Source: Solirubrobacteraceae bacterium (lineage in GTDB: Bacteria; Actinomycetota; Thermoleophilia; Solirubrobacterales; Solirubrobacteraceae). Taken from it: a stretch of 64,000 bases of DNA. Positions 1 to 36,665 of the stretch are shown piece after piece; position 1 is the stretch's first letter; the number at the start of each line of letters is the position of its first letter. Below the pieces are notes generated by a model. The model was not told the DNA's origin, did not search any database, and saw only the letters and a program-made list of their open reading frames with translations. The translations under genes were made by a program, and so were the position numbers. The stretch spans positions 16,768 to 80,767 of the forward strand of contig DASZEJ010000129.1 in the NCBI GenBank assembly GCA_035940955.1, written 5' to 3'.

Positions 1-1
1 G

Positions 2-1573: not shown

Positions 1574-1574
1574 C

Positions 1575-2495: not shown

Positions 2496-2505
2496 CGCGC
2501 GCGCG

Positions 2506-5063: not shown

Positions 5064-5716
5064 CCCGCGTCACCGTCTGCCCCTGCGCCGAGGCGGCGGC
5101 GCGGCACCTCGCCGCGAGCCTCCACGGCCACCTGCGCGCGGGCGCGCGGCACGTCGCCCTGTCGGGCGGCACGACCCCGCGCCGGGCGTACGAGCTGCTG
5201 GCCGAGCGCGGCTGGGCCGACGTGGAGTTCTGGCTCGCCGACGAGCGCTGCGTGCCGCCCGGCCACGAGGACGCGAACGCCCGCCTGCTGCACGAGGCGC
5301 TCGGCCCCGCGGCGCGCGTCCGCGAGGCGCGCGGCGAGCTGGGGCCGGAGGACGCCGCGTGGCTCTACGGCCGCGAGGTGGAGGAGGCGACGGGCGGCGT
5401 GTTCGACGTGGTCGTCCTCGGGCTGGGGGAGGACGGGCACACCGCGTCGCTCTTCCCCGGCCACCCCGGGGCCGGCGCGCGGCACGCGCCGGTGATCGGC
5501 GTGCGGGGCGCGCCGAAGCCGCCGCCGGAGCGCATCTCGCTCACGCTCCCGGTCCTGGAGCGCGCCCGCCACACCGTGCTGCTCGTCACCGGCGCCGCCA
5601 AGCGCGAGGCGCTCGCGCGCGTGCGCGCGGGCGACGGCACGCTCCCGCCGGCGCGGCTCGGCGCCGCGCTCGACGAGATCGTGTGCGACGAGGACGCGGC
5701 CGGCGCTAGCGCCTGA
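5060..5716 (+). CDS. pgl: 6-phosphogluconolactonase
   Basis: The GTG at 5060 overlaps the opcA stop (GTGA). Motifs 'SGGTTPR' and 'GLGEDGHTASLFPG' are present. Confidence 0.85.
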   Translation: MTRVTVCPCAEAAARHLAASLHGHLRAGARHVALSGGTTPRRAYELLAERGWADVEFWLADERCVPPGHEDANARLLHEALGPAARVREARGELGPEDAAWLYGREVEEATGGVFDVVVLGLGEDGHTASLFPGHPGAGARHAPVIGVRGAPKPPPERISLTLPVLERARHTVLLVTGAAKREALARVRAGDGTLPPARLGAALDEIVCDEDAAGASA

Positions 5717-6731: not shown

Positions 6732-6838
6732 GGCGCGGCTGGTCCTCCTCGGGGGCGTGGGCACGGAGAGAAGGAACCCGGGTCGTCCGAGGAAGTTTCG
6801 GATCAGCTCCGGCGCTCCAGCGAACGCGACGGTTCCCT

Positions 6839-6869
6839 TTTGACATTGTGTGACGGCGGTCACTACGGT
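6839..6869 (+). promoter_or_regulatory. putative sigma-70-type promoter upstream of the mce cluster
   Basis: A perfect TTGACA (6839-6844) is followed by a 19-nt spacer and TACGGT (6864-6869). The spacer contains the inverted repeat GTGAC-GGCG-GTCAC. Confidence 0.3.
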
Positions 6870-6948
6870 CCCCCACGCCTGAAAACGGGGCGCAGGGGCG
6901 CGCCCGAGGGGAGGCATCAACCTGCGGAACTCGAGGCAGATCGGTCGC

Positions 6949-8310: not shown

Positions 8311-8312
8311 GC

Positions 8313-19458: not shown

Positions 19459-21093
19459 ATGTCGACCGAGACCTCCGCCGCCACGCTGCACGGCGGCCGC
19501 CTGATCGCCCGGCGCCTGAAGGCTCACGGCGTGACGAAGCTGTTCACGCTGTCGGGCGGCCACCTGTTCTCGATCTACGACGGCTGCCGCGAGGAGGGCA
19601 TCGACATCGTCGACGTGCGCCACGAGCAGAGCGCGGCGTTCGCGGCGGAGGGGTGGGCGAAGGTCACGCGGCAGCCGGGCGTCGCGGCGCTGACCGCCGG
19701 CCCGGGCGTCACGAACGGCATGAGCGCGCTCGCGTCGGCGCAGCAGAACAACTCGCCGATGCTCGTGCTCGGGGGCCGGGCGCCGGCGATGCGCTGGGGC
19801 CAGGGCTCGCTGCAGGAGATCGACCACGTGCCGTTCGTGCGGCCGCTCGTCAAGCTCGCGGCGACGGCCGACTCCACGGCGGAGATCCCCGGGCTGGTGG
19901 ACGAGGCGCTGGCCGCGGCCGTGACGCCGTTCTCCGGCCCCGCGTTCCTCGACTTCCCGCTCGACCACGTCTTCATGGAGGCCCCCGAGCCGCCCGACGC
20001 CCCCGCGCTGCCGGAGCCGTGGACGGGACCGGCCGCCGAGGGCGTCGAGGCGGCCGCCGCGCTCCTGCGCGACGCCGAGCGCCCGGTGATCATGGCCGGG
20101 ACGAACCTGTACTGGGGGCGCGGCGAGGAGGCGCTGCTGCGGCTGGCCGAGCGGCTGCGGATCCCCGTCTTCCTCAACGGCCTGGCCCGCGGCTGCGTGC
20201 CCGCCGACCACGAGCTCTCCTTCTCGCGCGCGCGGTCGGCGGGGCTGAAGGAGGCGGACGTCGCCCTGGTCGTCGGCGTGCCGATGGACTTCCGGCTCGG
20301 GTTCGGGCAGGCGTTCGGGGAGGACACCGAGATCGTCGTCGTGCAGCCGGCCGAGCCGGCGCGCGACCACCCGCGGCGCGTGGCGGCCGAGCTGTACGGT
20401 GCGCTGCCCGCGACGCTGGAGGCGCTGGGGTCGGGCGCGTCCGTCGACCACGAGCCGTGGATCGCGCACCTGCGCGCGGTCGAGACGTCGAAGCGCGAGG
20501 CGGAGCGGGCCGAGCTGGACGACGACCGCTCCCCGCTCCATCCGATGCGGGTCTACCGCGAGCTGGCGGCGGTGCTCGACCGCGACGCGATCGTCATCGG
20601 CGACGGCGGCGACTTCGTGTCGTTCGCGGGGCGCGTGGTCGACACGTACCAGCCGGGGTGCTGGCTCGACCCGGGGCCGTTCGGCTGCCTGGGCAGCGGC
20701 CCGGGCTACGCGCTCGCCGCGAAGCTCGCGTTCCCCTCGCGGCAGGTGGTCCTCCTGCTGGGGGACGGAGCCTTCGGCTTCGCGGGGATGGAGTTCGACA
20801 CGCTCGCGCGCCACGGCGTCGGGGTGGTGGGCGTGATGGGCAACAACGGGATCTGGGCGCTGGAGAAGCACCCGATGGAGTTCCTGTACGGCTACAGCGT
20901 CGCCGCCGACCTCGTGCCCGAGCGCCGCTACGACCAGGCGGTCGAGGCGCTCGGCGGGCACGGCGAGCTCGTGCGCGCGCCGGCGGAGCTGCGTCCGGCG
21001 CTGGAGCGGGCGCTCGCGGCGGGGAGGCCGGCGCTCGTGAACGTGCTCACCGACCCGACCGTCGTGTATCCCCGCCGATCGAACCTGGCCTGA
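19459..21093 (+). CDS. thiamine-diphosphate-dependent enzyme (acetolactate synthase / oxalyl-CoA decarboxylase-like)
   Basis: ThDP N-terminal domain '[33 protein letters not shown]' and ThDP-binding '[17 protein letters not shown]...GNNG'. Confidence 0.8.
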
Positions 21094-21128
21094 GCCGGCG
21101 GGCGGGCGGGCGGGCGCCGAAATGGAAA

Positions 21129-21148
21129 CCGCCCCCCGAGGGGGGCGG
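21129..21148. terminator. GC-rich hairpin in a convergent intergenic region (probable terminator, better suited to minus-strand transcripts)
   Basis: CCGCCCCCC-ga-GGGGGGCGG. On the minus strand it is followed by TTTCCATTTC. Confidence 0.4.
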
Positions 21149-21365
21149 CTTCCGAAGTGGCCCCGTCAGGACGGGCAGGGGTACGTGCCTTGAAAGGGCC
21201 GATGGGTCGGTCGAGCGGCGGGAGGCGCCGTCTATGCGGCTTCGCTCGACCTATGCGGCCGGTTGGAGCAATGCTCTTCCCCAGCCGCGAACGAGTATCG
21301 ATCGATCCTGCCGCGGTTCCCATCGAACATTCGTCGAGTCGCGGTTGAGAAAGTCGGTACGTGCG

Positions 21366-23231
21366 CTATTGCGCAGCGCTCCGCCGCAGGGCGGCGCCGC
21401 GCAGGACGTCGTGCTCCGACACCTCGACCTCGTCCAGGCCGAACGCGCGCAGGACCTGGATGAGGATGGCGACCCCGGCGACGATCGTGGGGGCGCGGTC
21501 GGGGTGCAGGCCGGCGACGTTCCGGCGGTCGTCGTTCGGCATCTGGGCGAGCCGGGCCAGGAGTTCCTCCAGGCGGCCGAGGGGGATGCGGTGGCCGTGG
21601 ACCTGCTGCGGGTCGTGGTGGGCGCTTCGCTCCCCCGCCTCCCGCCCCGGATTGCACAGGTCGATCGCGCCCGCCGACGTCGCGGTGCCCGCGACGGCGA
21701 TCGCGGTGTGGACGGAGTCGCGGACGCTGTCCGGCACCTCGTTCTCGACGGTCTGCCGGACCTCGCTCGCGAGCGCGCCCAGCTCGTCCGGGTGCGGCGG
21801 GTCGGAGTGCAGGTGGCGCTCGGTCTGGCGCACGACCCCGACCTGCATCGAGACGTGGAAGGAGACGTCGTCCGCGTGCCCGACCACGACCTCGGTCGAG
21901 CCGCCGCCGATGTCCACGACCGCAAGCTCCGTGTCGCCCGGCCGCGTGGCGCGCTCGCTCGTGGCGCCCAGGAAGGTCAGGGCGGCCTCCTCGTCGCCGT
22001 CGATCGTGTGGGCGTCGAGGCCGTAGCGGTCGCGGACGGCCTGGGTGAACTCCGCGCCGTTCGCGGCGTCGCGGACGGCGCTGGTCAGCACCGCGGTCGT
22101 CGTGTCGGCGCGGTGCGCGTCGATCTGGGCGCGGTAGTCGTCGAGGACGGCGAAGACGCGGTCCATCGCCTCCCCGGCGAGCGCGCCGGTCGAGTCCACC
22201 CCCTGCCCGAGCCTCGTTACGCGAGACTCGCGGGCCAGCTCGTTCGCGATCCGGCCGTCGTGGACGTCGGCGATGAGCAGGCGGGTGGAGTTCGTTCCGA
22301 TGTCGACGACGGCGACGCGCATGGCCGGGCGCGGCGGAGGCGACCCAGCGGGGTGCGGCAGCGGTCGCCCCTCCAGGCCGGCCAGGAGGTTGTCCACGGC
22401 GAGGTCGGCCATGCGCTCGCGGGTGGTGTGGGTGGCCGAGCCGATGTGGGGGACGACGAGGGCGGTCGGGGTCTCGTAGAGGGGGTGGTCGGGCGGGAGC
22501 GGCTCGGGGTCCGTGACGTCGAGGGCGGCGCCGCCGATGGCGTTCGCCTGCAGCGCCCGCGTCAGCGCGTCCGTGTCGACCAGCCCCCCGCGCGCGGTGT
22601 TCACCAGGATCGCGGTCGGCTTCATGGCGGCGAGGGCGGCGGCGTCGACGAGGTGCTTCGTCTCGCTCGTGAGCGGGGCATGGAGCGAGACCACGTCCGC
22701 TTCCTTCAGGGCCTCGTGGAGAGGCGTCTCCCGCGTGACCGCGACGACGCGCATCCCGAACGCCTCCGCGCGCCGCGCGACCGCCCGCCCGATCCGCCCG
22801 AACCCGACGACGGCGAGCGTGGCGCCGCGAAGCTCCATCCCCAGCCACCCGGCGGGCTCCCACGTATGCCAGTTCCCGGCGCGGGCGTCCTGCGCCGCTT
22901 GGGGAAGGTTGCGGGCCGCGGCGAGGATCAGCGCGAAGGCGAGGTCGGCCGTCGCGTCGGTGAGCACCCCGGGCGTCGTCCCGACGACGATGCCCCGCTC
23001 GCGCGCCGCGTCGAGGTCGACGTTGTCCGCCCCGACGGCGTAGTTCGAGATCACCCTGAGCTTCGGCGCTCGTTCGAGGAGCCCGCCGTCGACCCGATCA
23101 GTCAGCAGGCACAGCAGCCCCTCCGCCCCGGCGATGTGCTCGTCGACGCCGCCGGTCACCACGTCGTGCACGGCCGCCAGCCGGTCCAGCGCGGGGAAGG
23201 GCAGAGGTCGAGTGACGAGGACGCGAGCCAT
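21366..23231 (-). CDS. fusion ORF: D-isomer-specific 2-hydroxyacid dehydrogenase (glyoxylate/hydroxypyruvate reductase-like) joined to a Ppx/GppA phosphatase domain
   Basis: Residues 1-~295 carry 'VVGFGRIGRAVARRA' and 'LVNTARGGLVD...PHIGSAT'. A Pro-rich linker 'PHPAGSPPPRPA' follows. From the Met at nt 22322 the sequence reads 'MRVAVVDIGTNSTRLLIAD...VVDIGGGSTE' (Ppx/GppA). No stop codon separates the two parts. Confidence 0.75.
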   Translation of the reverse strand: MARVLVTRPLPFPALDRLAAVHDVVTGGVDEHIAGAEGLLCLLTDRVDGGLLERAPKLRVISNYAVGADNVDLDAARERGIVVGTTPGVLTDATADLAFALILAAARNLPQAAQDARAGNWHTWEPAGWLGMELRGATLAVVGFGRIGRAVARRAEAFGMRVVAVTRETPLHEALKEADVVSLHAPLTSETKHLVDAAALAAMKPTAILVNTARGGLVDTDALTRALQANAIGGAALDVTDPEPLPPDHPLYETPTALVVPHIGSATHTTRERMADLAVDNLLAGLEGRPLPHPAGSPPPRPAMRVAVVDIGTNSTRLLIADVHDGRIANELARESRVTRLGQGVDSTGALAGEAMDRVFAVLDDYRAQIDAHRADTTTAVLTSAVRDAANGAEFTQAVRDRYGLDAHTIDGDEEAALTFLGATSERATRPGDTELAVVDIGGGSTEVVVGHADDVSFHVSMQVGVVRQTERHLHSDPPHPDELGALASEVRQTVENEVPDSVRDSVHTAIAVAGTATSAGAIDLCNPGREAGERSAHHDPQQVHGHRIPLGRLEELLARLAQMPNDDRRNVAGLHPDRAPTIVAGVAILIQVLRAFGLDEVEVSEHDVLRGAALRRSAAQ

Positions 23232-23247
23232 GGGTAGAGCCTGCCGT

Positions 23248-23704: not shown

Positions 23705-23778
<74 letters not shown>

Positions 23779-23786
23779 CTCAACAG

Positions 23787-23874: not shown

Positions 23875-26800
23875 TCACGACGAGCCCAGGAACGCCTGCC
23901 GCGCGAGGTTCTCGATCTCATGCGAGTCGATTCCGCCCTCCTCCGTCGACCAGACGAGCGTCCCTGAGGCACCGCCGCCCTCCGTCCACGGGAGAATGTC
24001 GTGGTCGCGGTACCACCCGAGCTTCGCCTCCCAATCGGCGCGGTATCCGGCGAGGTCCAGCATGCCCAGATGCTCCCAGTAAGCGGGCGGTCCGCTGGAC
24101 CGGCGAATCGTGAAGTCCGGCTCCCGCACCGTGCCATCAGGCATCCGCAGGAGCTCCTCGTACGTGTACTCGACGCCGAGGTCGCGGAGCGTGTTCGCCA
24201 CGATCACCTCGGACTTCGAGCGCATAAGTTCCTCGTTTCGGGAGCGGTGGACATGAGAACCGTCGAGGATCCGCCCCTCCGGTGTCATGAACGGGTCGGG
24301 CGGCCGGAACAGGCAGGTCAGGCGCCGGGCGGTCTCGGATCGCGCGGGATCCGAGAGCTCGAGAAGCTCCATCGGCTCGCCCTGCACCAGCAGCACCGCG
24401 CGACCGCGGTGGCGCGTGGATGCGGTGTAAAGCAACTCGGGCGACAGCAACGCGGACGGCTTCGGCACGACGACAAACGTCGTCTCGAACTGCGATCCCT
24501 GAGCCTTGTGGACGGTGATCGCGTATGCGACGTCCAGGAGGTCTGCGCGATCGGACTCGCGGTTCAGCTCGTTTTCCCAGAACGTGAACCGCAAACCCGG
24601 CTGCGTGGAGAACTCGAGCCACAGTCCGATGGCAGCTCCGTTCTTCTTCGGCCAGCCGACCGCGATGCCGATCTCGCCGTTCGCGACGTCGCTGTCGACG
24701 TCTTCGCCGGTGGCGATGCGCCGCGCCCCGCGGGGGTGGTTCGCGACGCACATCACTTTGTCGTGAAAGAGGACCTCGCCTGGGCCCATTGGGTCCGGCA
24801 GCGCGACGGTCTGCCGGGCGCGTGCGGCATCACCGGACCGCCACGTCCGCCGAATCATCCGGTTGAGCCCGACGACGCCGCCCGGTCGCGATCGAACCGG
24901 GCTCAGGATCTGCCACAGCTCGGCGCCGCGGCCTGCGGTGCCGAACTCGAAGGAGACGCCGCGAGGGCCGTCCGTGGCCCCGAGCGAACGCTTCAACGCG
25001 TCGGCGTCGCCGTTCCCGAGCTGGAGGCTGCTGTCGTTGCGAAGGATGTCCGCGATCTTTTCGTGGAGATCATCCTCGTCGCTCCACGAGATCACACTGA
25101 CGGTGCCGTCACCGCCACCGGAGACCACCCGGGCCCAGGCCTGATCGGCGCCCGCGGGGGTGGCGTCCGCGGCGAAGCACGCCGCGACCGCGGCGTCGTC
25201 ACGGGCGCCGGCGGCGCCGTCGCGTGCCCGCTGACGACGGCCGATCGTGAGCTCGGCCACCCCGCCACCCGACTCGGGCGCCGCGGTCGCCCGAAGGTGC
25301 GCGACCAGATCGGCGAAAGGCCGGCCCGCGCCGATCGGCGGCAACTGCCGGTGGTCGCCGCACAAGATCAGCCGCTCGGGCGCGCGGAGCGACTCAATCA
25401 GCGCCGCGAGCATCTCCTCCGTGAGCATGGACGCTTCGTCGACGATCACCGTGCGAACGCCGCCGAACCGCATGCCGTCCCTGTTCAGGAAGTAGCCACG
25501 CTCCCAGGTCCACCGTTCAGCCTTCTTCAGGAACTGCGCCAGCGTCCGCGCCTGTGCCCCCGCCTTGTCCCCTAGTTGAACGCGCGCCTTGCCCGTCGGC
25601 GCTAGCAGGAGGACGTTGCCAGCGATGGTCGGATCGGAGCAGAGCGCGCGCAACATTGTGGTCTTGCCCGTGCCGGCCGGCCCGACCAGTGCGGCGATGC
25701 GCGACCGCGCGAGCGTCGCAAGCGCTGCGGCCTTCTCCTTCCGGGCTCGCACCTCGAGGTCCAGCTCTGGATCGCCAGACGGTGGCAACTCCTCGTCGAT
25801 GGCGCCGTCGATGAGCGCGTCCCAGGAGGCGCTCGCCGCCAGAGGACCATCGTCGATACGCCCTCGAACCTCTCCCGCTATGACGTCCGTGACCGCCGCC
25901 AGACGATCCAGTTGCCACGCACGGCCGCGACCTTCCGCTACGGCTCGCTCGAGGAGCACAGGCTCAAACTCCTCGGCGGCCAGCTCGAACTGGTCGGTCG
26001 TCGGGTCGCAGCGCGGGTCGAGGTCTACCTTCGCGAGGCGCTTGCGGAGGCCTGCCTCATCGAGCAGCGTATGGCCCTCGTCAGTGGCCTTCTCGAGGAC
26101 GGCTACGGACGCGGCACGGATGCGGCGGTCATCCACCGACTCCTCGACCGGCTCGGGAAGCGGGTCGTAGTCGAGCGCGGCTCGGGCTGCGGCGTCCCGC
26201 GGGAAGAGGCCGCGATCGATCGTGCGGAACCCGACCGCGTCCCTGGCGGCACGATCGAGCTCGTAGGCCAGGTACGGGTTCTCGAGGACCTCCCGCGGCG
26301 CGACCGGCCGCGTGTCGCGGTCGAAGAGCCGACGTGCCTGCGGCGACGAGAGCGCGAAGCGCGAGAGCAAGCGAACGAGGTCGTACTCGTCCGCGCTGCC
26401 ACGAAGGCGTTCCCATCGCTTGCGGCTCATGCGGCCGAGCAGGCCAGCGGCCGGGCCACGGCCGCGCGTCGCACCATCGACGGCCTGTTCGAGCGCCGGC
26501 CACGGATTCGCCGAAGGGTCTGTCATCGACTTGAGCACGCGGTAGGCGAGCACCGGCCCGCGCTCCAAGCCTGCAGCCGCCAAGACAGGGCCCATGCCGG
26601 GATAGGCGCCGCGTGCCTCCCATGCCTCCGCGACGCGGTCGCCGAGCCAGTCAGCGACCTGGTCCCACGGCCCGTCAACGACACCGGGGAGGAGGTCGAC
26701 AGCGCGAGCGAGTTCGGTGAGTGCGGCGATCGCAGCGTCGTGCTCGACCCGCTCCGTGACGTAGGAGAACTCGTCGAAGTGGTCGGCCGGCGCGACGGCC

Positions 26801-27621
26801 ACGAACGGGTCCAGGTCCGCGCCCTGCAGAGCCGGGCTCCGGAGTAGCTCGTGATACGGCAGGAGGAACCCGTCCTCGAACGTCGGCCGGATGGAGTGGC
26901 AAACGCCGCGCTCCCATATGACAGCGCGCAGCGGGCCCTTGCCGCGGTACGACCACTCGAGTGGTGGGAGAACCTCCTTGACGCGGCCGACGCCGAGGAG
27001 GATGCGGCCCCCTGGCGGCCGTTCCTCCAGGAGCGGGACGTCCTTCGCATAGATGAAGACGAGCGAGCGCTCAGGCACAACGCCCGAGAAGAACGAGTCG
27101 AGGAGCGCCAGCTGGTTCCGATGATCCTGGACCCAGTCCCTTGCCTTCGGGGTCCTGATGATCGCCGAGGCCGCCTCCTCGAGCTCCTCGTCGTAGTTGA
27201 TGCCCCAGAGGCGGAGCCGGTCGGAGATTTCACCGCGCATGACCCACCTAAATGGCGTCGCCTCGAGGCTGTACGCCGGCATGCGGTGGACCGTCTTGTC
27301 GAAGTGCGCGTGGGACTCGGTCCATCCACCCGAGTACGGGTGCTCGCGGACGATCGAGAACGCGTTCGGACGCATGAAGCCCGCCCGCTCGAAGACGCAC
27401 GGCGGTACCCGCTCGCGGGGCAGCTCGGTCCACGCCGTGCCACGATCGTCCTCCTCTGTGTCCGCGTCCTTGTTCTCGTAGACGTTCTTGAGGACGGTGC
27501 AGGAGTGGTTCGCCGCGGGCTCAGCGCACACGCGACCCGTCCAGTCAGTGTCGTGCCAGGCGACGCGGGCCGAGAGGTGAGCCGGTGGGAGCTCGACGGC
27601 GTCCGCGGAGAGCTGACTCAC
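23875..27621 (-). CDS. 1248-aa multidomain protein: unknown N-terminal domain, RecD-like SF1B helicase, and a C-terminal PD-(D/E)xK-like nuclease domain
   Basis: GTG start at 27621 and TGA stop at 23875. Helicase motifs: Walker A 'GPAGTGKT' (nt 25660-25683), 'VIVDEASM', 'CGDHRQLPPIG', an SH3-like insert 'NGEIGIAVG', 'ITVHKAQGSQF' and 'LYTASTRHRG'. The C-terminus reads 'SKSEVIVANTL...EPDFTI...YWEHLG'. Confidence 0.85.
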   Translation of the reverse strand: MSQLSADAVELPPAHLSARVAWHDTDWTGRVCAEPAANHSCTVLKNVYENKDADTEEDDRGTAWTELPRERVPPCVFERAGFMRPNAFSIVREHPYSGGWTESHAHFDKTVHRMPAYSLEATPFRWVMRGEISDRLRLWGINYDEELEEAASAIIRTPKARDWVQDHRNQLALLDSFFSGVVPERSLVFIYAKDVPLLEERPPGGRILLGVGRVKEVLPPLEWSYRGKGPLRAVIWERGVCHSIRPTFEDGFLLPYHELLRSPALQGADLDPFVAVAPADHFDEFSYVTERVEHDAAIAALTELARAVDLLPGVVDGPWDQVADWLGDRVAEAWEARGAYPGMGPVLAAAGLERGPVLAYRVLKSMTDPSANPWPALEQAVDGATRGRGPAAGLLGRMSRKRWERLRGSADEYDLVRLLSRFALSSPQARRLFDRDTRPVAPREVLENPYLAYELDRAARDAVGFRTIDRGLFPRDAAARAALDYDPLPEPVEESVDDRRIRAASVAVLEKATDEGHTLLDEAGLRKRLAKVDLDPRCDPTTDQFELAAEEFEPVLLERAVAEGRGRAWQLDRLAAVTDVIAGEVRGRIDDGPLAASASWDALIDGAIDEELPPSGDPELDLEVRARKEKAAALATLARSRIAALVGPAGTGKTTMLRALCSDPTIAGNVLLLAPTGKARVQLGDKAGAQARTLAQFLKKAERWTWERGYFLNRDGMRFGGVRTVIVDEASMLTEEMLAALIESLRAPERLILCGDHRQLPPIGAGRPFADLVAHLRATAAPESGGGVAELTIGRRQRARDGAAGARDDAAVAACFAADATPAGADQAWARVVSGGGDGTVSVISWSDEDDLHEKIADILRNDSSLQLGNGDADALKRSLGATDGPRGVSFEFGTAGRGAELWQILSPVRSRPGGVVGLNRMIRRTWRSGDAARARQTVALPDPMGPGEVLFHDKVMCVANHPRGARRIATGEDVDSDVANGEIGIAVGWPKKNGAAIGLWLEFSTQPGLRFTFWENELNRESDRADLLDVAYAITVHKAQGSQFETTFVVVPKPSALLSPELLYTASTRHRGRAVLLVQGEPMELLELSDPARSETARRLTCLFRPPDPFMTPEGRILDGSHVHRSRNEELMRSKSEVIVANTLRDLGVEYTYEELLRMPDGTVREPDFTIRRSSGPPAYWEHLGMLDLAGYRADWEAKLGWYRDHDILPWTEGGGASGTLVWSTEEGGIDSHEIENLARQAFLGSS

Positions 27622-27982
27622 GAGCTACGTCGGGATGAGCTGAGCATAGGAGCGCACTCCATCAGAGGATCGCCAGCTCGCGCAACGTGCGCTCGCTCGC
27701 GGATGCTGCGACCACATGAGCGTGGTTGTTGGCTGCCTAGGGCTGTGTCACGTCGCACTCGCTCCGCCGCTCCAGTGGCGAGCTGTCAACCACGCGCTCC
27801 GTTCGCCTCCGCCGCGTCGAAAGCGGCTCACCGCACAACTCCGCAATGTTATCCGGCCGAGCAGCGCGACGCCGGCGCAAGCGCCGCTGTCGCTGATGCG
27901 GGCGGCCGAAGACCGCAATCTCACCGCGAAGGGAGGCGGTGGGGCAGCGGGCGGCAGTGTGCGATGCGATAAACCTGAACGC

Positions 27983-28690: not shown

Positions 28691-28913
28691 TGCGCATTAG
28701 CACCATTGCCCGGTCGATGGAGATCCCAGGACAGATCGATGGACGAGCTCGACGCATGAACCGCTGGTTAGATCGGCGAGGCTCGGGGCTAGCGGCTGAA
28801 CCGCTCTGACTGGGCCCGGGCGGTCGGTCATTCGCCCGCGCTTGGTGTAGAGGCGGGCCGGGGCGAGAAGTACGCTCCCTCACCCGGTATTGCGAGCACC
28901 GACAGGAGCGACA

Positions 28914-30824
28914 GTGGCCGTACGTCTGGAGTGGGAGGACAAACCCGAGCACGTTGAGCGCGTGACGCTCCCGTTCCAAACCGTCGAGACGGTCAACGAG
29001 TCACGCGCGACACGCGAACGGGATCGGGGGACGCTCCAGTTCGGCGGCGATCGCCCCACCGAGCGGAACATGCTCGTTTGGGGCGACAACAAGCTGGTCA
29101 TGAGCAGCTTGCTCAAGGAGTACGCCGGCTCCATCCGGCTGATCTACATCGACCCGCCGTTCGACACAGGCACCGACTTCTCGTACCGCGTGAAGGTGGG
29201 CGACGCCGACTTCACCAAGACGCCGTCGATTCTCGAGGAGAGCGCGTACAGGGATACATGGGGCCGAGGGCGCTCTTCCTATCTCCACATGCTTTGGGAG
29301 CGTCTGGTCTTGATCCACGATCTCCTGTCCGACGGTGGCTACCTGTTCCTTCACCTAGGATCGAATGTGAGCCACTACGGCAAGGTCCTCTGCGACGAGA
29401 TCTTCGGTGCGGACGCCTACGTGAACGAGATCATCTGGAAGCGACAGACCGCCCACAGCGATATCGGGCAGGGCGCTCGGCATCTCGGTCGTCTACATGA
29501 CTCGATCCTCTTGTACCGGAAGGGCGACGAGGCCCCCTGGAACATGTCCTTCACCCCCTATAACGAGAGCTACGAGTCCTCGTTCTACAGACACGTCGAA
29601 GAGGGGACCGGACGCAGATACGGACTCGGCGACATTACCGGGCCCGGCGGAGAAACAAAGGGGAATCCGCGGTACGAGTTCCTCGGCGTCACGCGCTATT
29701 GGCGCTTCAGCCAGCGCCGCATGCATGAGCTGTACGAGGAGGGCCGGATTGTTCAGACCAGTCCGGGCGCTGTCCCGCGTCAGAAGCGGTATCTGGACGA
29801 ACTCCCCGGCATTCCTCTCCAGGACATCTGGACCGATGTGCCGCCCGTCCAAGCACAGTCTCGCGAGCGGCTCGGGTACGACACGCAGAAGCCAGAGGCG
29901 CTGCTTGAGCGGATCATTAGTCTGGCGAGCGATCCAGATGATCTCGTGGCGGACTTCTTCGTCGGGTCGGGGACGACCGCGGCCGTGGCCGAGAAGCTCG
30001 ACCGCCGCTGGATCGCGGTGGATCTCGGGCGCTTCGCCATCCACACGACGCGCAAGCGTCTCCTGAACATTCCGGACTGCCGGCCGTTCGACATCAAGAA
30101 CCTCGGCGCCTACGAACGCCAGCGCTGGCAGCAGGCCTCCGGGAACGGTGCCTTGCGCGCCTACCTCGACACGATCCTCGCCTTCTACCGCGCGGATCCT
30201 GTCGAGGGCTTCACACACTTGCACGGGCGCAAAGCCGGCCGCATGGTGCACGTCGGCGCGACCGACGCACCCGTGACGATCGACGAGACCGAGGACGTGA
30301 TGGACGAGATGGCCGACAACGGCATCGAGTCGTGCGACTTGCTCGGGTGGGAGTGGGAGATGGGTCTCCATGACACCATCACCGAGCGTGCGCGCCGGCG
30401 TGGACTGGATCTTCGGCCTCGGCAGATCCCGCGTGAGGTCATGGAGCGCCAGGTGACGGAGGCGGACGCGGTGCGCTTCTTCGAGCTCGCTCACGTCGAT
30501 CTCGACGTGCGTCGTCAGGGCAACGAAGCGTGCGTGGTGCTCAAGGACTTCGCCATCCCGAGCGAGAACCTCATCCCGCCGAAGGTGCGCGAGCGCATCA
30601 CGGCGTGGTCCGACCTCATCGACTACTGGGCCGTCGACTTCGACTACACGGACGACGTTTTCCACAACCAGTGGCAGGCGTATCGCACGCGCGAGGAGCC
30701 GAAGCTCGCCACGCAGAGCGACTGGCACGAGTACGCCGAGCCGGGACAGCACGCGATCGTCGTGAAGATCATCGACATCTTCGGCAACGACACGACGAAG
30801 CTCGCTGAGGTCCGCATAAGGTGA
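28914..30824 (+). CDS. mod: Type III R-M system DNA methyltransferase (Mod; N6-adenine/N4-cytosine beta-class)
   Basis: Motif IV 'IYIDPPFDTG' (DPPF at nt 29151) precedes motif I 'DFFVGSGTTAAVA' (about nt 29955). 'NEIIWKR' is present. AGGAG at 28904-28908 sits 5 nt before the GTG at 28914. The track's alternative start is 28890. Confidence 0.85.
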   Translation: MAVRLEWEDKPEHVERVTLPFQTVETVNESRATRERDRGTLQFGGDRPTERNMLVWGDNKLVMSSLLKEYAGSIRLIYIDPPFDTGTDFSYRVKVGDADFTKTPSILEESAYRDTWGRGRSSYLHMLWERLVLIHDLLSDGGYLFLHLGSNVSHYGKVLCDEIFGADAYVNEIIWKRQTAHSDIGQGARHLGRLHDSILLYRKGDEAPWNMSFTPYNESYESSFYRHVEEGTGRRYGLGDITGPGGETKGNPRYEFLGVTRYWRFSQRRMHELYEEGRIVQTSPGAVPRQKRYLDELPGIPLQDIWTDVPPVQAQSRERLGYDTQKPEALLERIISLASDPDDLVADFFVGSGTTAAVAEKLDRRWIAVDLGRFAIHTTRKRLLNIPDCRPFDIKNLGAYERQRWQQASGNGALRAYLDTILAFYRADPVEGFTHLHGRKAGRMVHVGATDAPVTIDETEDVMDEMADNGIESCDLLGWEWEMGLHDTITERARRRGLDLRPRQIPREVMERQVTEADAVRFFELAHVDLDVRRQGNEACVVLKDFAIPSENLIPPKVRERITAWSDLIDYWAVDFDYTDDVFHNQWQAYRTREEPKLATQSDWHEYAEPGQHAIVVKIIDIFGNDTTKLAEVRIR

Positions 30825-33415
30825 CCGCCAGCGACGTCTCGACGGTTGTTCCGAACGATCCGTACGCGGTCCCGGAGCGACGCAAGCCCAGCGAGAACAC
30901 GTACGCCGTCAACGGGGTTCGCGCGCGCGTCGATGCTTGGCGCACGCAGGCTTACCCGGGCGCGAGCGAGACGACCAAGCGCCTGCTCGGCTTCTGGTTT
31001 ACCGACGAGCACCGCACGGACGACGGCCGGCCGTTCCGCTTCTACTTCTGCCAGCGCGAGGCCGTCGAGGCGTTCATCTACCTAACAGAGATCGAGCCCG
31101 TCCGAAAGCTCGCCGACCTTCTCGAGTACGCGGAACACGGCATGCTCATCGAGCCGGGCGATCCGAAGCGGCAGCGGCTCGCGATGAAGATGGCGACCGG
31201 CTCCGGAAAGACGATGGCGATGAGCCTCGCGATCGTGTGGTCCTACTTCCACGCGCTCCGCGAGACGGACTCGCCGATGGCGACGTCATTCCTGGTTATC
31301 GCGCCGAACGTGATCGTCTTTGAGCGGTTGAAGACGGACTTCGGCGACGCCACGACGTTCCGCCGCGACCCGCTCGTCCCGCGGGAGTGGAGCGAGGACT
31401 TCGAGCTGACCGTGCTCCTGCAAGATGACCCGGCTCCGGTGACGACGCGCGGCGTGCTCTACCTCACGAACGTGCAGCGGCTGTACGAGGCGACCTCCCG
31501 AGGCAAGGCGAAGGCGCCGCCCAACCCCGTCGAGGCGATGCTCGGGCCGCGCGTGAACCGCGACATCGAGGCCTCGGCGTCTGAGGAGCTGCTCAGGCGG
31601 ATTGCGACGCGCGGTCGGGTGATGGTCGTCAACGACGAGGCGCACCACGTGCACGACCAGAAGCTCAAGTGGAACCAGTCGATCGAGCGGCTCCACGAGG
31701 AGCTGCGCCAGATGGGCGGCGACGATTCCGGCGCGGGAGTCGTCTCGCAGCTCGACTTCTCCGCGACGCCGAAGTACGAGAAGGGCGGGATCTTCAAGCA
31801 CGTGGTGGTCGACTATCCGCTTGCGCAGGCGGTCGCCGACGGCATCGTCAAGACGCCGGTGATCGGGGAGGTGAGCGGGGCGAAAGTCGAGCTGGGCGAC
31901 TCGGCGTTCCAGCGCAACCGTCAGTGGCTCGACGTCGCAGTGGGGCGCTGGCGGGCCTTCCACGAGCAGCTCAGCCCGTCCGGCAAGCGGCCGGTGCTGT
32001 TCGTCATGTGCGAGGACACGCTGGCGGCGGACGAGGCTGGTGACTACCTACGCCAGCTCCCTGACTTCTCTGGCGATCGGCTGCTCGTCATCCACACCAA
32101 TCGCTCGGGTGAGATCACCAAGGACGATCTCGACAAGGCCCGCCGAGCTGCTCGCGAGGTCGACGAGCCGGACAGCTCGATCCGCTGCATCGTCAGCGTG
32201 CTCATGCTCCGGGAAGGCTGGGACGTGCGCAACGTCTGCGTCATCGTCACGATGCGCGCGCTCACCGCGGCGAACAAGATCCTCCCCGAACAGGCGCTGG
32301 GCCGCGGTCTACGACGGATGACGCCGCCGGGCTCCGGCTTCGACGAGCGCGTGGTCGTTATTGAGCACGAGGCGTTCCGCAACCTCTGGACCGCGGAACT
32401 CGACGGAGGGCTCATTGTCGACAAGCAGGACGTCGACAAGATCCAGCCTGGCGCCGTCACGATCTTCCCGGACGAGGGGAAGCGCGGCTACGACATCGTC
32501 ATCCCGCAGCTCACGCGCGCGCTCGCGCGAGCAGACAGTCCACTGGCGCAGCTCCAGCCCCATGACGTGCCTGACCCGAAGACGCGGCTCGACGTCCCCG
32601 ACGTCGCGCCGGACGAGTACGTCAAATACCGCGGCGTGCACCTCATCGACAAGGGGGTTATCGAGGAGATGGAGTTCCTCATCCCATACGCCGAGGACCC
32701 CTCGGGCGTCATCACGTACTACACGCACAGCGTCGCGAAGGCGGGCGGCGTCGACCGGCTCGCTGGGACGTTCGCAACGCTCGCCCCGATGGTCCGCGAC
32801 TACCTGCGCCACCGCATCTTTGAGCGCCCAGTCGAGCTGGAGGACAAGGTCGTCCTCCGACGCCTCGCTGAAGCCGACGCCCAAGCACTCGTCGTGGGGG
32901 CCTTCCGCGACGCGATCCGCGCCCTGTCGATCACAGAGCGGGAGCCCACGATCGAGGAGAACGCGCTCCGAGTCTTGGACACCCCGCCGTTCCCATGGTC
33001 GCGCCAGACCGTCGAAGGCAGGAAGACCGTCTTCAACCTCACGCCGGTCGACAGTTCCCTCGAGGCGCGCTTCGCGGAGTTCCTCGACCGCGCCGCAGAC
33101 GTGACGGCATGGGCGAAGCTCACCATGAACAGCCGCTTCGCCGTCGAGTACATCTCGAAGGCGGGCGCGCTGCGCTACTACTACCCCGACTTCGTCCTGC
33201 GACTCGAAGATGACACCTGCCTGATCGTCGAGACGAAGGGGCAGGAGGATCTCGACGTTGCGCTGAAGGATCGGCGAGCTCGGCGATGGTGCCAGGACGC
33301 GACCCGGCTCGCAGGCCGCGAATGGGCTTACGAGAAGGTCCCGCAGAAGCTCTTCGACGGGTTCCACGGCGACACGATCGACGAACTGCGGCGACTCCTC
33401 GACGCCTCGGGGTAG
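30821..33415 (+). CDS. res: Type III restriction endonuclease Res subunit (SF2 helicase plus PD-(D/E)xK nuclease)
   Basis: GTGA overlap with mod. Walker A 'MATGSGKTMAM', DEAH box 'VNDEAHHV', 'MLREGWDVRNV', and a C-terminal nuclease motif 'YYPDFVLRL...LIVETKG'. Confidence 0.85.
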   Translation: MTASDVSTVVPNDPYAVPERRKPSENTYAVNGVRARVDAWRTQAYPGASETTKRLLGFWFTDEHRTDDGRPFRFYFCQREAVEAFIYLTEIEPVRKLADLLEYAEHGMLIEPGDPKRQRLAMKMATGSGKTMAMSLAIVWSYFHALRETDSPMATSFLVIAPNVIVFERLKTDFGDATTFRRDPLVPREWSEDFELTVLLQDDPAPVTTRGVLYLTNVQRLYEATSRGKAKAPPNPVEAMLGPRVNRDIEASASEELLRRIATRGRVMVVNDEAHHVHDQKLKWNQSIERLHEELRQMGGDDSGAGVVSQLDFSATPKYEKGGIFKHVVVDYPLAQAVADGIVKTPVIGEVSGAKVELGDSAFQRNRQWLDVAVGRWRAFHEQLSPSGKRPVLFVMCEDTLAADEAGDYLRQLPDFSGDRLLVIHTNRSGEITKDDLDKARRAAREVDEPDSSIRCIVSVLMLREGWDVRNVCVIVTMRALTAANKILPEQALGRGLRRMTPPGSGFDERVVVIEHEAFRNLWTAELDGGLIVDKQDVDKIQPGAVTIFPDEGKRGYDIVIPQLTRALARADSPLAQLQPHDVPDPKTRLDVPDVAPDEYVKYRGVHLIDKGVIEEMEFLIPYAEDPSGVITYYTHSVAKAGGVDRLAGTFATLAPMVRDYLRHRIFERPVELEDKVVLRRLAEADAQALVVGAFRDAIRALSITEREPTIEENALRVLDTPPFPWSRQTVEGRKTVFNLTPVDSSLEARFAEFLDRAADVTAWAKLTMNSRFAVEYISKAGALRYYYPDFVLRLEDDTCLIVETKGQEDLDVALKDRRARRWCQDATRLAGREWAYEKVPQKLFDGFHGDTIDELRRLLDASG

Positions 33416-33811: not shown

Positions 33812-34149
33812 TTAGATCACCGCATCGAGCGCCTCGACGATCTCCCGGCCGTTCTTGACGTGAAGTGCGACTTCCCTTGACTCGTAGCTGAGCCTTCCCG
33901 CGGCCGGGTGCGGTCGCCGGTGTGCGCTATGCGGTTGCGACGGTCGACCAGCTCTTCCAGTTGGCGACATGAAAGCGCCGCTTCGACGCCGCGGACGCTG
34001 TCGACCTTCCTCCAGAGGCTCTTGTCCTTCTTGCCCACGACCTCGAGGACGTCGCCGATCCGGTTCGGTTTGGCGCTCGCCATCTGCTCTGTCTGTTTCG
34101 TGAGCAGCTTCCGGTACGCCCAGCCCGGCCTCTTGTAGTCGCCCACCAT
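33812..34149 (-). pseudogene. frameshifted small ORF with a HEPN-type RNxxxH motif
   Basis: Frame A reads '...LEELVDRRNRIAHTGDRTRP'. From about nt 33905 the protein-like reading continues in another frame ('AAGRLSYESREVALHVKNGREIVEALDAVI*'). Confidence 0.4.
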
Positions 34150-34395
34150 CAGAACGTCTTGGGACGAGACGGGCGTCGCGTTCTCCAGGTCGCGTCACTC
34201 TCGGCCGCTCCGGCTTGCGCTCTGCAGCCGTGGCACAGTCGGCCCGCTCGATTCGCGCGGGCTGCGCCCCTGCCACCCCACGCGCCCAGCGTTCTCGGCA
34301 CCAGCCATTTCGTCGGCGCCCACCAGCACGCCCGGACGACGCACAGACGGGCATTTCGCCCGGGGGGCGAAAGGCGGCTCGCGCGACTTGATGGT

Positions 34396-35072
34396 GTGTT
34401 GTCGATCGGTCGGGTGCTGGCAGGGGACGAGCGCGAGCGGTACTACCTCGAGCAGGTGGGGCAAGGCCGGGACGACTACTACGCCGGTGAGGACGACGGC
34501 GGCGGTGAGTGGATCGGCACGGGCGCGGGCCTGCTCGGCGCCACCGCGTGCGCTCGAGGAGGACGGGCTGAAGGCGCTGCTTCGCGGCCGCGATCCGGTC
34601 GCGGGCGATCAGCTTCGACGGGTGATGCGTGAAGGCGGCGTCTCGGCGTTCGATCTCACGTTCAAACCGCCCAAGAGCGTGAGCCTGCTGTGGGCGCTAT
34701 CGGCCGAGCACGTTTCGGCGGCGACGCGCGCCGCGCACGACTCGGCGGTGCGGCAGGCACTCGACTACCTCGAGATTGAGGCGTGCCGCGGGCGCCGCGG
34801 CAAGGACGGCGTGCGCCAGGTCCGCGGGGAGGGGTTCGTCGCGGCGGCGTTCGCCCACCGCACGTCGCGCGCCGGCGATCCGCTCCTGCACACGCACGTC
34901 GTGATTGGCAACCTCGCGCTTGGTGAGGACGGCAAAATGGGGCGCCCTGGACAGTCGGCTGCTGTTCCGCCACGCCAAGACCGTGGGATTCCTCTACCAG
35001 GCCGCGCTGCGCGTGGAGCTCACCGAGCGGCTCAAGGTCGAGTGGGGTCCTGTTCGGCACGGTTGCGCCGAC
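34396..35072 (+). pseudogene. MobF/TrwC-family relaxase, N-terminal domain only, with at least 2 frameshifts and 3' truncation
   Basis: The homology is spread over three frames: 'VLSIGRVLAGDERERYYLEQVGQGRDDYYAGEDDGGGEWIGTGAGLLG', then 'GVSAFDLTFKPPKSVSLLWAL...FAHRTSRAGDPLLHTHVVIGNLA' (His-triad motif), then 'WGALDSRLLFRHAKTVGFLYQAALRVELTERLKVEWGPV'. Confidence 0.75.
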
Positions 35073-35260
35073 CTATATCACGGACGCGCCGTCAGCCTGC
35101 GCGGCGGCGAGCGCCTGCAGCACATCGCGGGGGGTGAACGTGCTCGCCTGCTCGGTCAGCTCGTCGGGCGCCGGGTGCTGCTCGCCGCGTGGCTCAAGAG
35201 CGCGGTTGATCAGCGCATCGACGGCGCGCCGATCGAGCCCGTGCTCCGCCGCGGGCGCGC
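35073..35260 (-). pseudogene. inverted relaxase-like fragment
   Basis: The minus-strand translation '...AVDALINRALEPRGEQHPAPDELTEQASTFTPRDVLQALAAAQADG' resembles the segment that follows the relaxase domain in TrwC/TraA proteins. It abuts the point where the plus-strand homology ends. Confidence 0.3.
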
Positions 35261-35525
35261 CGCTGCTCGCGCAGCCGCTCGACCGGCACCGCGCCGTGCG
35301 CGCGGTTGCGCATACCGTCGCGAGCAGCGCGCTCGCGAGGAGCGTCGTCAGCCCTAATGCGCCCCTCCGCGCTCCCATCACCCGTGCAGCGCCCCGCCGC
35401 TCCGCCGCGCCGGTACCCCCGGTTACATAACCCGTTTGCCGCCGCGGCCCTCTTGGTACCATCCAACTGTCGTTCAGCGGTCAACGCATTCGCAAGCGTT
35501 CACCGAGGGGGAAGCGAGGGAGATC

Positions 35526-36665
35526 ATGGCAGCAGTCGATGCGCCGGTCAGGGCGCAGGGGCTCGCTGGCGTCGTCGCGGGCCAGACCGCCGTGTGCTCG
35601 ATCGAGCTCGGCGGGGGGCATGAGCTTGCCTATCGCGGCTATGACGTGCACGAGCTCGCGGAGCGGGCGACGTTCGAGGAGGTCGCTCGTCTCCTGCTCT
35701 ATGGCGAGCTCCCGAACCGTGACGAGCTGGCGGCCTATGAGCGGGCGGTCGCCGGGCATCGGTTCCTCCCCGACGCCGCCAAGAGCATGCTGCGGCAGTT
35801 CCCCGTCAACGCCTCCGCGATGGACGTGCTGCGCAGCGTCGTCTCGCTGCTCGGGGTCCTCGACCGCGACGCCGGGCCGGAGGACGACACGGCCGCCATC
35901 GCGACTCGGCTCATCGGCGTCATGCCGACCGCGCTGCTCTTCTGGCACCAGCTGCGCGAAGGGCGCTACGAGCCGCGGGTGGAGGGCGGGAGCGGGTCGG
36001 TCGCCGCCGCGACGCTTCGCGCTCTTCTCGATCGGGAGCCGGACGAGCAGGCCGAGCGGATCCTCTCCGGCAGCTTCATCCTCTACGCCGAGCACGAGTT
36101 CAACGCGTCGGCGTTCTGTGCCCGGATCGTCTCGTCCACCGGCGCGGACACGTACTCGGCGATCGCCGCCGCGATCGGCGCCCTGAAGGGCTGGCGGCAC
36201 GGTGGCGCCAACGAGGCCGCGCTGCGGTTCATCGAGCCGCTGAGCGATCCCGACGAAGCTGAGCGGGAGGTCCTGAGCCGGCTCAAGCGGGGTGAGCGGA
36301 TCATGGGCTTCGGGCATCGCCTCTACCGCACCGGCGACCCGCGCGCGCGGCTCATGCGCGAGTGGTCGCGGGAGGTCGCTCGAACCACCTGCGACTCACG
36401 GCTGTTCGACGTCTCGGACCGGATCGAGCAGGTCATGGCGCGCGAGAAGAACCTGTTCGCGAACGTCGACTTCTGGTGCGCGTCGTGCTGGCACGGGCTC
36501 GGGATCCCGGTCGAGCTGTTCACGCCGCTCTTCGTCGTCGCCCGCACTTCTGGGTGGAGCGCGCACGTCGCCGAGCAGCGTGCCGAGCGCAAGCTCATCC
36601 GGCCCAAGTCGCACTACGTCGGGCCGGGCTACCGCGAGGTCGTCCCCCTCCACGCGCGAGGATGA
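35526..36665 (+). CDS. citrate synthase / 2-methylcitrate synthase family protein
   Basis: 'GLAGVVAGQTAVC', 'LAYRGYDVHELA', 'ILYAEHEFNAS' and 'GFGHRLYRTGDPRA' are present. The ATG at 35526 is preceded by GAGGGAG. Confidence 0.9.
   Translation: MAAVDAPVRAQGLAGVVAGQTAVCSIELGGGHELAYRGYDVHELAERATFEEVARLLLYGELPNRDELAAYERAVAGHRFLPDAAKSMLRQFPVNASAMDVLRSVVSLLGVLDRDAGPEDDTAAIATRLIGVMPTALLFWHQLREGRYEPRVEGGSGSVAAATLRALLDREPDEQAERILSGSFILYAEHEFNASAFCARIVSSTGADTYSAIAAAIGALKGWRHGGANEAALRFIEPLSDPDEAEREVLSRLKRGERIMGFGHRLYRTGDPRARLMREWSREVARTTCDSRLFDVSDRIEQVMAREKNLFANVDFWCASCWHGLGIPVELFTPLFVVARTSGWSAHVAEQRAERKLIRPKSHYVGPGYREVVPLHARG

Follow-up and report, generated by a model that had tools for sequence, protein, structure and literature searches.

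Nhi, Hna, Hhe and the type II Mokosh protein MkoC follow a common logic in which an NTP-driven helicase and a nuclease are joined in one polypeptide that is encoded in defence islands. A comparable layout is found in RecB and AddA of the RecBCD, AddAB and AdnAB complexes, where a superfamily 1 (SF1) motor is followed by a C-terminal PD-(D/E)xK nuclease in the same chain. The closest described relatives of the gene reported here form the family PDC-S68, one of 145 "phage defence candidates" (PDCs) of Payne et al. (2024; bioRxiv 10.1101/2024.01.29.577857). In that preprint, the PDCs were picked from among genes that lie inside BREX, DISARM or type I restriction-modification (R-M) systems, and they were added to PADLOC. 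In this work, we analysed a stretch of 64,000 nucleotides from a Solirubrobacteraceae bacterium (assembly GCA_035940955.1, contig DASZEJ010000129.1, positions 16,768 to 80,767; hereafter the window), in which an open reading frame (ORF) of 1248 codons encodes a member of this family.

Judged by its profile matches, the window gene is an ordinary member of the catalogued PDC-S68 family. The model PDLC05065 (PDC-S68) of PADLOC-DB v2.0.0 aligned to protein residues 14-1244 with profile positions 6-1219 of 1221 (E=0, 1286 bits), and the two sister PDC-S68 models also matched over the full length (PDLC05066 with 473 bits, PDLC05064 with 357 bits). PADLOC treats PDC-S68 as a single-gene ('S') class. 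The homologues share both the length and the order of three modules with the window protein, and no structural difference was found between them.

An earlier note, made from the sequence of the window, had described a protein of three modules and had proposed it as a single-polypeptide defence candidate with an architecture that matches none of the known ones. The three modules and the reading as a defence candidate hold up and are supported by the profile, structure and neighbourhood results described below. The claim of an unmatched architecture does not, given the end-to-end alignment of PDLC05065 at 1286 bits: the family is already searchable in PADLOC and no new architecture has been discovered. 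The note had also named the placement in an already named defence family as the outcome that would speak against it. This comes close to what was found, as PDC-S68 is indeed listed, but as a numbered, unvalidated candidate.

The separation from the fused helicase-nuclease proteins mentioned above, which the note had likewise asserted, is borne out by PADLOC, where the matches reach the level of a P-loop at most. Nhi (15.9 bits), MkoC (15.7 bits) and MkoA (25.3 bits) aligned over short P-loop or motif III stretches, and Hna and Hhe are absent among the 19 PADLOC families matched at E<=1. Nhi, Hna, Hhe and Mokosh differ from PDC-S68 in helicase family, nuclease type and domain order, and to our knowledge none of them carries the PDC-S68 N-terminal domain.

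Three modules in one polypeptide

The gene and its parts are located in the window as follows (all on the minus strand):
23875..27621 (-): PDC-S68 ORF, 1248 codons plus stop, GTG start, uninterrupted (ORF list and translation)
26602..27621 (-): N-terminal domain, residues 1-340, mixed alpha/beta (AlphaFold2 (AF2) model, conservation)
26134..26601 (-): linker, residues 341-496, poorly conserved (low column conservation; no Pfam family match)
24382..26133 (-): RecD2-like region, residues 497-1080, HhH-like lead-in and SF1B core with an SH3-type insert
25663-25665 (-): Walker A K653, codon checked
25435-25440 (-): Walker B D728/E729, codons checked
23878..24375 (-): predicted PD-(D/E)xK-fold nuclease domain, residues 1083-1248 (AF2 model, Foldseek)
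24208-24210 (-): putative catalytic E1138, codon checked
24115-24117 (-): putative catalytic D1169, codon checked
24073-24075 (-): putative catalytic E1183, codon checked

The GC content at the three codon positions of the ORF is 0.72/0.51/0.85, the pattern that real genes show when the genome is rich in GC, and a reading frame with a full-length match to a family profile at E=0 is far beyond chance. The corresponding protein deposited at the Joint Genome Institute (JGI; P0001) is 100% identical to the window protein, with its start placed at the GTG of residue 31, 30 codons downstream, to give 1218 amino acids; the window corresponds to the 79-kb contig Ga0334906_000093 of JGI, from a soil-type metagenome. 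The upstream 30 codons (27529-27621, minus strand) encode the cross-phylum motif HLSxRVxWHDTDWTG; within residues 13-30, H15, W22, D24 and W27 are kept in homologues from other phyla, and AF2 models residues 14-19, inside the segment that the JGI call lacks, as a strand with high confidence. Based on this conservation and the modelled strand, we prefer the 1248-residue reading, as the earlier note had given it, over the JGI start, and the JGI-deposited protein is probably truncated at its N-terminus.

Several other very long ORFs overlap real genes, among them one of 1194 amino acids at 19653-23237 (plus strand), for which no Pfam match was obtained, and one of 373 amino acids at 26851-27972, antisense to the N-terminal domain of the PDC-S68 gene. 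They look like high-GC artefacts, as they were selected neither by the codon-position GC criterion nor by the codon-model gene caller.

The central module is a RecD2-like helicase. Pfam assigned AAA_30/AAA_19 to residues 630-778 (AAA_30 E=7e-31) and UvrD_C_2/Viral_helicase1 to residues 1027-1077 (UvrD_C_2 E=6e-10). The top match in NCBIfam is RecD2 (TIGR01448), which covers residues 497-774 and the C-terminal core with 167.3 bits at a cut-off of 500; the RecD models TIGR01447 and PRK10875 reach 127.7 and 70.4 bits and stay below their cut-offs of 310 and 671. The nearest sequence of a solved structure is Deinococcus radiodurans RecD2 (3e1s; query 497-772 to chain 70-330), and further PDB relatives are Escherichia coli RecD (1w36_D), Dda and Pif1, with 3upu among the matches. 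In 66 cluster representatives of 32-45% identity, K653, D728/E729, motif III, R796, H1038/Q1041 and Y1065-R1070 are invariant. The SH3 insert is scored by SH3_13 at E=0.18 in the window protein and at up to 3.6e-5 in relatives, which lies below the Pfam cut-off. With its motifs and the UvrD_C_2 core both present and conserved, the module classifies by sequence as a member of the SF1B superfamily, and the RecD/Dda-type motif set that had been read from the letters is thus recovered by Pfam, NCBIfam, the 3e1s match and the invariant positions. A 5'->3' polarity would be expected from the homology to RecD2, RecD and Dda.

In comparison to RecD2 (3e1s/3gp8) and RecD, the SF1B motifs, the HhH-like lead-in and the SH3-type insert are common property, whereas the window protein adds an N-terminal domain of 340 residues, a linker of about 150 residues and a C-terminal nuclease. 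It also differs from RecD2 in score (167 vs 500 bits) and in its genomic position, which lacks the synteny of a core repair gene. With RecB and AddA it shares the order of motor and nuclease, but its motor is of the SF1B type (RecD-like, 5'->3' by homology) instead of the UvrD-like SF1A type, it has no Pfam match to PDDEXK_1 or UvrD-helicase, partner subunits are missing, and no sign of a Chi-like control was seen. The relaxase-helicases of the TraA/TrwC type were considered as a family and rejected: Pfam detected no TrwC domain in the protein, and the scores of TraA_Ti (87 vs 590 bits) and PRK13826 (66 vs 1317 bits) stay below threshold. This speaks against the possibility, raised in the earlier note as a second way to refute it, that the whole protein belongs to a TraA-like family.

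For the C-terminal module, AF2 returned a model of residues 1083-1248 with a mean confidence (pLDDT) of 85. All PDB matches of this model in Foldseek that could be named, top ranks included, are PD-(D/E)xK nucleases, namely R2 RLE, Bax1, DrdV, Cas4 SSO0001, McrC, Can2, AbaSI, TnsA and viral cap-snatching endonucleases. Probabilities of the nuclease matches reach 1.00, with E-values from 2e-3 to 1e-1 and TM-scores of about 0.4. We therefore predict with moderate confidence a PD-(D/E)xK nuclease fold with its alpha-beta-beta-beta-alpha-beta core, in line with what the note had suspected for this end of the protein. No exchange of E1138, D1169 or E1183 was seen in homologues down to 26% identity; K1136, E1155, H1184 and K1200 are listed alongside them as putative catalytic residues.

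The N-terminal module is the least familiar part of the protein. Its AF2 model (residues 1-340) is of high confidence (pLDDT 93, pTM 0.92), but none of the searches led to a relative. Pfam had no match to residues 1-340 of the window protein and nothing credible in the N-terminal domains of 20 family members scanned at E<=5 (best E 0.085); a profile of the domain found nothing at E<=10 among PDB sequences; and with Foldseek the model had no counterpart in either PDB or BFVD, where the best E-values were 0.63 and 0.33. Folds of the SRA, YTH, EVE or McrB-N type were likewise without a significant match in these Foldseek searches, the comparison to the N-terminal reader of Thermococcus gammatolerans McrB (6p0f) being insignificant (E=2.2, probability 0.06). 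The earlier statement that the first 330 or so residues carry no recognisable catalytic motif is in line with the searches of Pfam, PDB and BFVD.

The domain is as strongly conserved as the catalytic modules. Its invariant residues (E78, N169/Q170, Y191, W236 and H242) include many polar and aromatic ones, and H15 is conserved together with a cysteine triad, C32/C41/C75. These four residues may form a metal site. The Vibrio homologue has D, A and W in place of the three cysteines and retains the helicase and nuclease residues; such a joint loss would fit a shared structural metal site. The most likely contribution of the N-terminal domain is recognition or licensing. The helical region that the earlier note had placed at residues 330-630 aligns from residue 497 onward to the N-terminal part of RecD2. 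A different arrangement was seen in one protein of 873 residues (P0199), in which the homology to the N-terminal domain lies at residues 537-827, behind 536 residues that match no family; a fusion might explain this, as might a gene call that reaches too far or a truncation at a contig end.

Distribution and genomic neighbourhoods of PDC-S68

A word-indexed search gave 232 relatives. The best 120 of them are mostly 1200-1260 residues long and contain no Pfam domain beyond the ATPase/helicase core; the NCBI name of the relatives is "AAA family ATPase". When the profile of the N-terminal domain was run against 1.84 billion cluster representatives, 1454 clusters passed E<=1e-3, of which 298 also passed E<=1e-30. 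In the best 150 clusters, all near-full-length proteins keep the architecture of about 1250 residues, and the remaining shorter ones are probably fragments. The closest relatives of the N-terminal domain, with 69% identity, come from metagenome-assembled genomes (MAGs) of Solirubrobacteraceae. Hosts with a name include Solirubrobacterales, Serinicoccus, Nonomuraea, Nocardia, Microbispora and Mycolicibacterium/Mycobacterium, and also Paraliomyxa (Myxococcota), Longimicrobium, Thermoanaerobaculia and Dehalococcoidia. Across Actinomycetota, Bacillota, Pseudomonadota, Bacteroidota, Myxococcota and Acidobacteriota, and down to 26% identity, K653, D728/E729, E1138, D1169 and E1183 are invariant.

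The family is spread patchily over the taxa, and the 56-60% identity of some homologues from different phyla speaks for horizontal transfer. Consistent with mobility, 24 plasmid records carry a PDC-S68 gene, 22 of which were typed as non-mobilizable; the plasmid hosts are Bacillus cereus (15 megaplasmids), Rhizobium, Sphingomonas, Embleya, Vibrio (IncC), Bartonella, Paracoccus, Hymenobacter and Chondrinema. From phage collections the family is essentially absent: a pattern scan of viral contigs for the N-terminal domain yielded no confirmed relative, and the sole matches in GenBank phages are two short unannotated faecal contigs.

Four longer variants of 1406-1562 residues (P0172, P0192, P0234 and P0258) retain the nuclease and continue beyond it into an additional domain at the C-terminus. 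In P0172 the extension is a Schlafen AlbA_2 domain (E=1.7e-20); those of P0192, P0234 and P0258 are helical and end in an RNxxAH motif, from which we call them HEPN-like, with no Pfam HEPN match at E<=1 for P0192 and P0258. In five MAG loci (L005, L013, L014, L015 and L016), the homologue is either truncated or broken up over two or three ORFs; as some of these sequences derive from long-read MAGs, the splits may be assembly frameshifts instead of pseudogenes.

To place the family in its genomic context, we surveyed the neighbourhoods of about 28 homologous loci from at least six phyla. Genes of the MAG loci were called by a codon-model caller with gap filling and are therefore approximate. 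At about 17 of the 28 or so loci the homologue adjoins defence-type genes (DISARM, type I or III R-M, SNF2/methylase, STAND, HEPN or PIN), which agrees with a defence role. The sets of neighbours vary between loci, with the exception of a recurring SNF2/TmtA-like block. Representative arrangements are:
B. cereus plasmids: integrase, PDC-S68, then DrmA, DUF1998 and helicase (DISARM)
Nonomuraea: DrmA and DrmB beside PDC-S68
Hymenobacter: DpdF-like helicase, DrmD, PDC-S68 and a 1113-residue type III-like methyltransferase (a cluster of DrmD, methyltransferase and DEAD helicase)
Bartonella, 23-kb plasmid: type I R-M
Rhizobium: NACHT protein
L026 (3.4-Mb contig): MmeI-type methyltransferase, PLD-SNF2, PDC-S68 and NB-ARC STAND
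L027 (1.2-Mb contig), 1-11681: recC-recB-recD, PDC-S68 co-directional and immediately downstream, nSTAND NTPase, integrase fragment
L025, 677-19341: PDC-S68, a small ORF and a PIN-domain gene between two paralogous PadR/ABC/ABC/FtsX/DUF2600 modules
Serinicoccus kebangsaanensis, L004:13765-14514 (+): HEPN_RiboL-PSP gene of 250 residues that overlaps the PDC-S68 stop codon, with translational coupling of the two genes
Vibrio fluvialis IncC plasmid NZ_AP028130.1, L021, gene at 9962-13615: Qnr quinolone-resistance gene and IS3 transposase adjoin
Mycobacterium, L017 and L018: SNF2 and UvrD-like helicases, one locus also with a short RecD-like gene
L009:10001-20209, L012:10215-20106 and L028:8001-18036: co-directional PDC-S68, DrmD-like SNF2 and TmtA/sacsin-like ATPase with an Mrr-like end

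The homologues of B. cereus, Nonomuraea, Hymenobacter and Bartonella lie in or beside DISARM, DrmD/methyltransferase or type I R-M genes, the kind of setting from which the PDCs were drawn. At L025, the genes appear to have been inserted between the copies of a tandem duplication. The co-directional triad in the last row is found in a Solirubrobacterales MAG (L009), Mycolicibacterium tusciae (L012) and Microbispora rosea (L028). Its two partner genes are 50-85% and 36-70% identical among the three loci, and between L009 and L012 they reach 85% and 70% although the hosts belong to different orders. Possibly the triad acts as a multi-gene system that has not been described so far, or it is transferred as one block. 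Upstream of PDC-S68 at L009 (415-9930), three further giant genes, for a DpdE-like SNF2 helicase (949 bits), for a DrmMI/type IIG-like methyltransferase and for a UvrD/GajB-like helicase, complete a cluster of six co-directional helicase and methylase genes, in which DrmA and DrmB are missing.

A proposed role and its alternatives

We propose, with a probability of roughly 0.55, that the window gene encodes an autonomous, ATP-driven and DNA-degrading defence enzyme in a single chain, with the N-terminal domain setting its specificity. The N-terminal domain would recognise a feature of invading DNA or a cue of infection, or would hold the enzyme off until such a cue appears. The RecD2-type SF1B motor would load on single-stranded or end-containing DNA and translocate in the 5'->3' direction at the expense of ATP, and the C-terminal PD-(D/E)xK nuclease would cut the DNA fed to it by the motor, as the placement in RecB and AddA suggests, so that phage or plasmid DNA is destroyed. 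The assignment to defence builds on the full-length PDC-S68 match, the invariant catalytic residues and the combination of mobility, patchy spread and links to defence islands. We infer the DNA substrate, the coupling of motor and nuclease, sensing and metal binding by the N-terminal domain, and the trigger.

A functional analogy may be drawn to the type IV enzymes SauUSI and McrBC, which combine a reader, an NTPase motor and a nuclease. According to Payne et al. (10.1101/2024.01.29.577857), BrxU/GmrSD-like genes are typically embedded in methylation-based systems. No homology of the window protein to SauUSI, McrBC or BrxU/GmrSD was detected. The frequent embedding of PDC-S68 itself in methylation-based systems leads us to favour a role that complements them, with DNA that escapes them, such as modified phage DNA or replication intermediates, as a plausible but speculative trigger. 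A more far-reaching version, in which the N-terminal domain is a metal-binding sensor of foreign DNA with a new fold and PDC-S68 a new class of motor-driven restriction that backs up DISARM and types I and III R-M, attacks the phage DNA that escapes them (hypermodified DNA or replication intermediates, for instance) and in some lineages carries AlbA_2 or HEPN effectors as interchangeable parts, strikes us as doubtful.

Several observations weigh against the proposed defence enzyme. In the preprint, the PDCs are explicitly described as untested (10.1101/2024.01.29.577857), and our literature search returned no paper that names PDC-S68 or any of six RefSeq accessions of homologues. Literature on RecD, helicase-nuclease proteins and phage defence likewise contained no paper about the family. 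The DefensePredictor study left the PDCs out of its PADLOC searches "because they are unvalidated", a paper on defence in Streptomyces removed by hand those candidates that looked like mobile elements, with integrases, recombinases and helicases as the features screened for, and neither of the two covers PDC-S68. The neighbourhood survey has no background control and relies on heuristic gene calls in the MAGs; it is supportive and not a statistical test. No defence gene could be recognised next to the homologues of Nocardia, of the IncC plasmid from Vibrio and of several MAGs of Solirubrobacterales, and when 141 neighbouring ORFs were scanned together, they proved to be mostly metabolic with a few SNF2, UvrD and integrase matches. 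As to the protein, the nuclease matches in Foldseek are of moderate strength (E of about 2e-3, TM of about 0.4) and the position of the canonical lysine of the (D/E)xK motif is occupied by Leu1185; the role of this lysine may be taken over by K1136 or K/R1200, both invariant, as judged from the alignment and not from model coordinates. Finally, the N-terminal domain has no informative relative, which makes the trigger a guess.

Among the alternatives, it seems unlikely to us that PDC-S68 is a non-autonomous subunit or accessory of a multi-gene system of the DISARM, Hma or type III-like kind, for which the type III R-M genes could be the partner in the window. The triad conserved in three actinobacterial lineages (L009, L012, L028) would fit this idea, as would the position of the Hymenobacter gene between DrmD and the 1113-residue methyltransferase and the adjoining DrmA/DrmB genes in B. 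cereus and Nonomuraea. However, the partner set changes from locus to locus, the Nocardia and Vibrio loci have no defence-type helicase or methylase nearby, and in the window, to which the triad does not apply, the gene and the R-M operon are transcribed away from each other with an unrelated ORF between them. The single-gene class in PADLOC also argues for autonomy, as does the view, put forward by Payne et al. (10.1101/2024.01.29.577857), that embedded genes are usually independent systems.

We give a similarly low chance to an abortive-infection or toxic effector, whose motor-nuclease, when triggered, would hit all DNA without distinction, that of the host as well, with death or arrest of the infected cell; in some relatives an added HEPN RNase would take part. 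Hna reportedly acts by abortive infection, and activated Hachiman reportedly degrades DNA indiscriminately. Within the family, the Schlafen/AlbA_2 and RNxxAH extensions and the HEPN_RiboL-PSP gene that overlaps its PDC-S68 neighbour point in this direction, but the window protein has no additional effector domain and the HEPN call on the fused extensions is based on a motif, with no Pfam match at E<=1 for those of P0192 and P0258.

Two further explanations are much less probable than these. A function for mobile elements, either as remnant of a TraA-like relaxase-helicase or as helicase for plasmid maintenance or competition, could account for the sub-threshold matches of the helicase core to TraA_Ti and TraI models, the TrwC remnant in the same island and the presence of the family on plasmids. 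The protein itself contains no TrwC/HUH relaxase domain, however, and its TraA_Ti match (87 bits) is below the RecD2 score; the TrwC fragments form a pseudogene of their own, at a distance of 6.5 kb and in the opposite orientation; and 22 of the 24 plasmids are non-mobilizable by typing, with no relaxase or transfer gene beside PDC-S68 in the plasmid loci whose annotation was examined. A housekeeping repair enzyme that processes ends in the manner of RecD2, AdnAB or Dna2 appears equally improbable. The RecD2-like core, the order of helicase and nuclease as in RecB and AddA and the single homologue directly downstream of recC-recB-recD on the same strand (L027) would be explained by such a role, which is at odds with the lack of conserved synteny over about 28 loci, the location on islands and plasmids, the patchy spread with its 56-60% cross-phylum identity and scores that fall well short of the equivalog cut-offs for RecD2 and RecD. 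The fragmented copies in some MAGs, perhaps due to assembly errors, also speak against it.

If the proposed single-chain defence enzyme is functional, it would add to bacterial immunity a widespread single-gene helicase-nuclease factor that occurs in at least six phyla, both in chromosomal islands and on large plasmids. Its N-terminal specificity domain is without precedent in PDB and BFVD, and the target of this domain could reveal a new way to discriminate self from foreign DNA. For annotation, we suggest the label PDC-S68 candidate in place of "AAA family ATPase" or "hypothetical protein", with the start 30 codons upstream of the JGI call.

The tRNA-linked island around the gene

The window gene is the first of an island with the following further features:
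23705..23779 (+): tRNA-Met (CAT) (ARAGORN; Rfam RF00005, 65.7 bits)
27716/27896-28690 (divergent from the PDC-S68 gene, on the opposite strand): ORF of 264-324 residues, the "235-aa neighbour" of the earlier note
28890-30824 (+): type III Mod (Pfam N6_N4_Mtase; PADLOC MTase_III, 384 bits)
30821-33415 (+): type III Res (Pfam ResIII and RE_endonuc; PADLOC REase_III, 80 bits)
33817..34149 (-): truncated HEPN ORF of the RiboL-PSP type, 110 residues, RRNRIAH (Pfam HEPN_RiboL-PSP E=1.2e-4, below cut-off)
34159..35137 (+): TrwC-type relaxase remnant in two frames (Pfam TrwC 4.1e-39 at 34388-35137 and 2e-3 at 34159-34632)
35436-36665: citrate synthase, just before which the relaxase remnant breaks off

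The tRNA-Met gene is convergent with the PDC-S68 ORF, marks the left edge of the island and lies 95 bp beyond the stop codon. GC content drops from about 0.74 to 0.64-0.69 across approximately 23-35 kb. The TrwC remnant is what a conjugative or mobilizable element has left behind at the right end of the island, which has decayed; a direct repeat of the tRNA 3' end, as expected of an att site, was not found at this edge. Taken together, the tRNA-Met edge, the GC dip, the R-M genes, the HEPN remnant and the relaxase pseudogene make the locus look like a decayed, tRNA-linked mobile island, and the island context on which the earlier note had relied was seen again in the scans of the window.

The divergent ORF, which had been suggested as a possible partner of the PDC-S68 gene, matched nothing in Pfam, PADLOC or PDB and was rejected as a conserved partner, as no homologue of it lies beside the 22 other PDC-S68 copies examined. 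The type III R-M pair is context and stands outside the system of the PDC-S68 gene itself: the window copy adjoins these genes and is not embedded in them. The truncated HEPN ORF is 32% identical to the 250-residue HEPN gene of the Serinicoccus PDC-S68 locus, which hints at a recurrent association of HEPN genes with PDC-S68.

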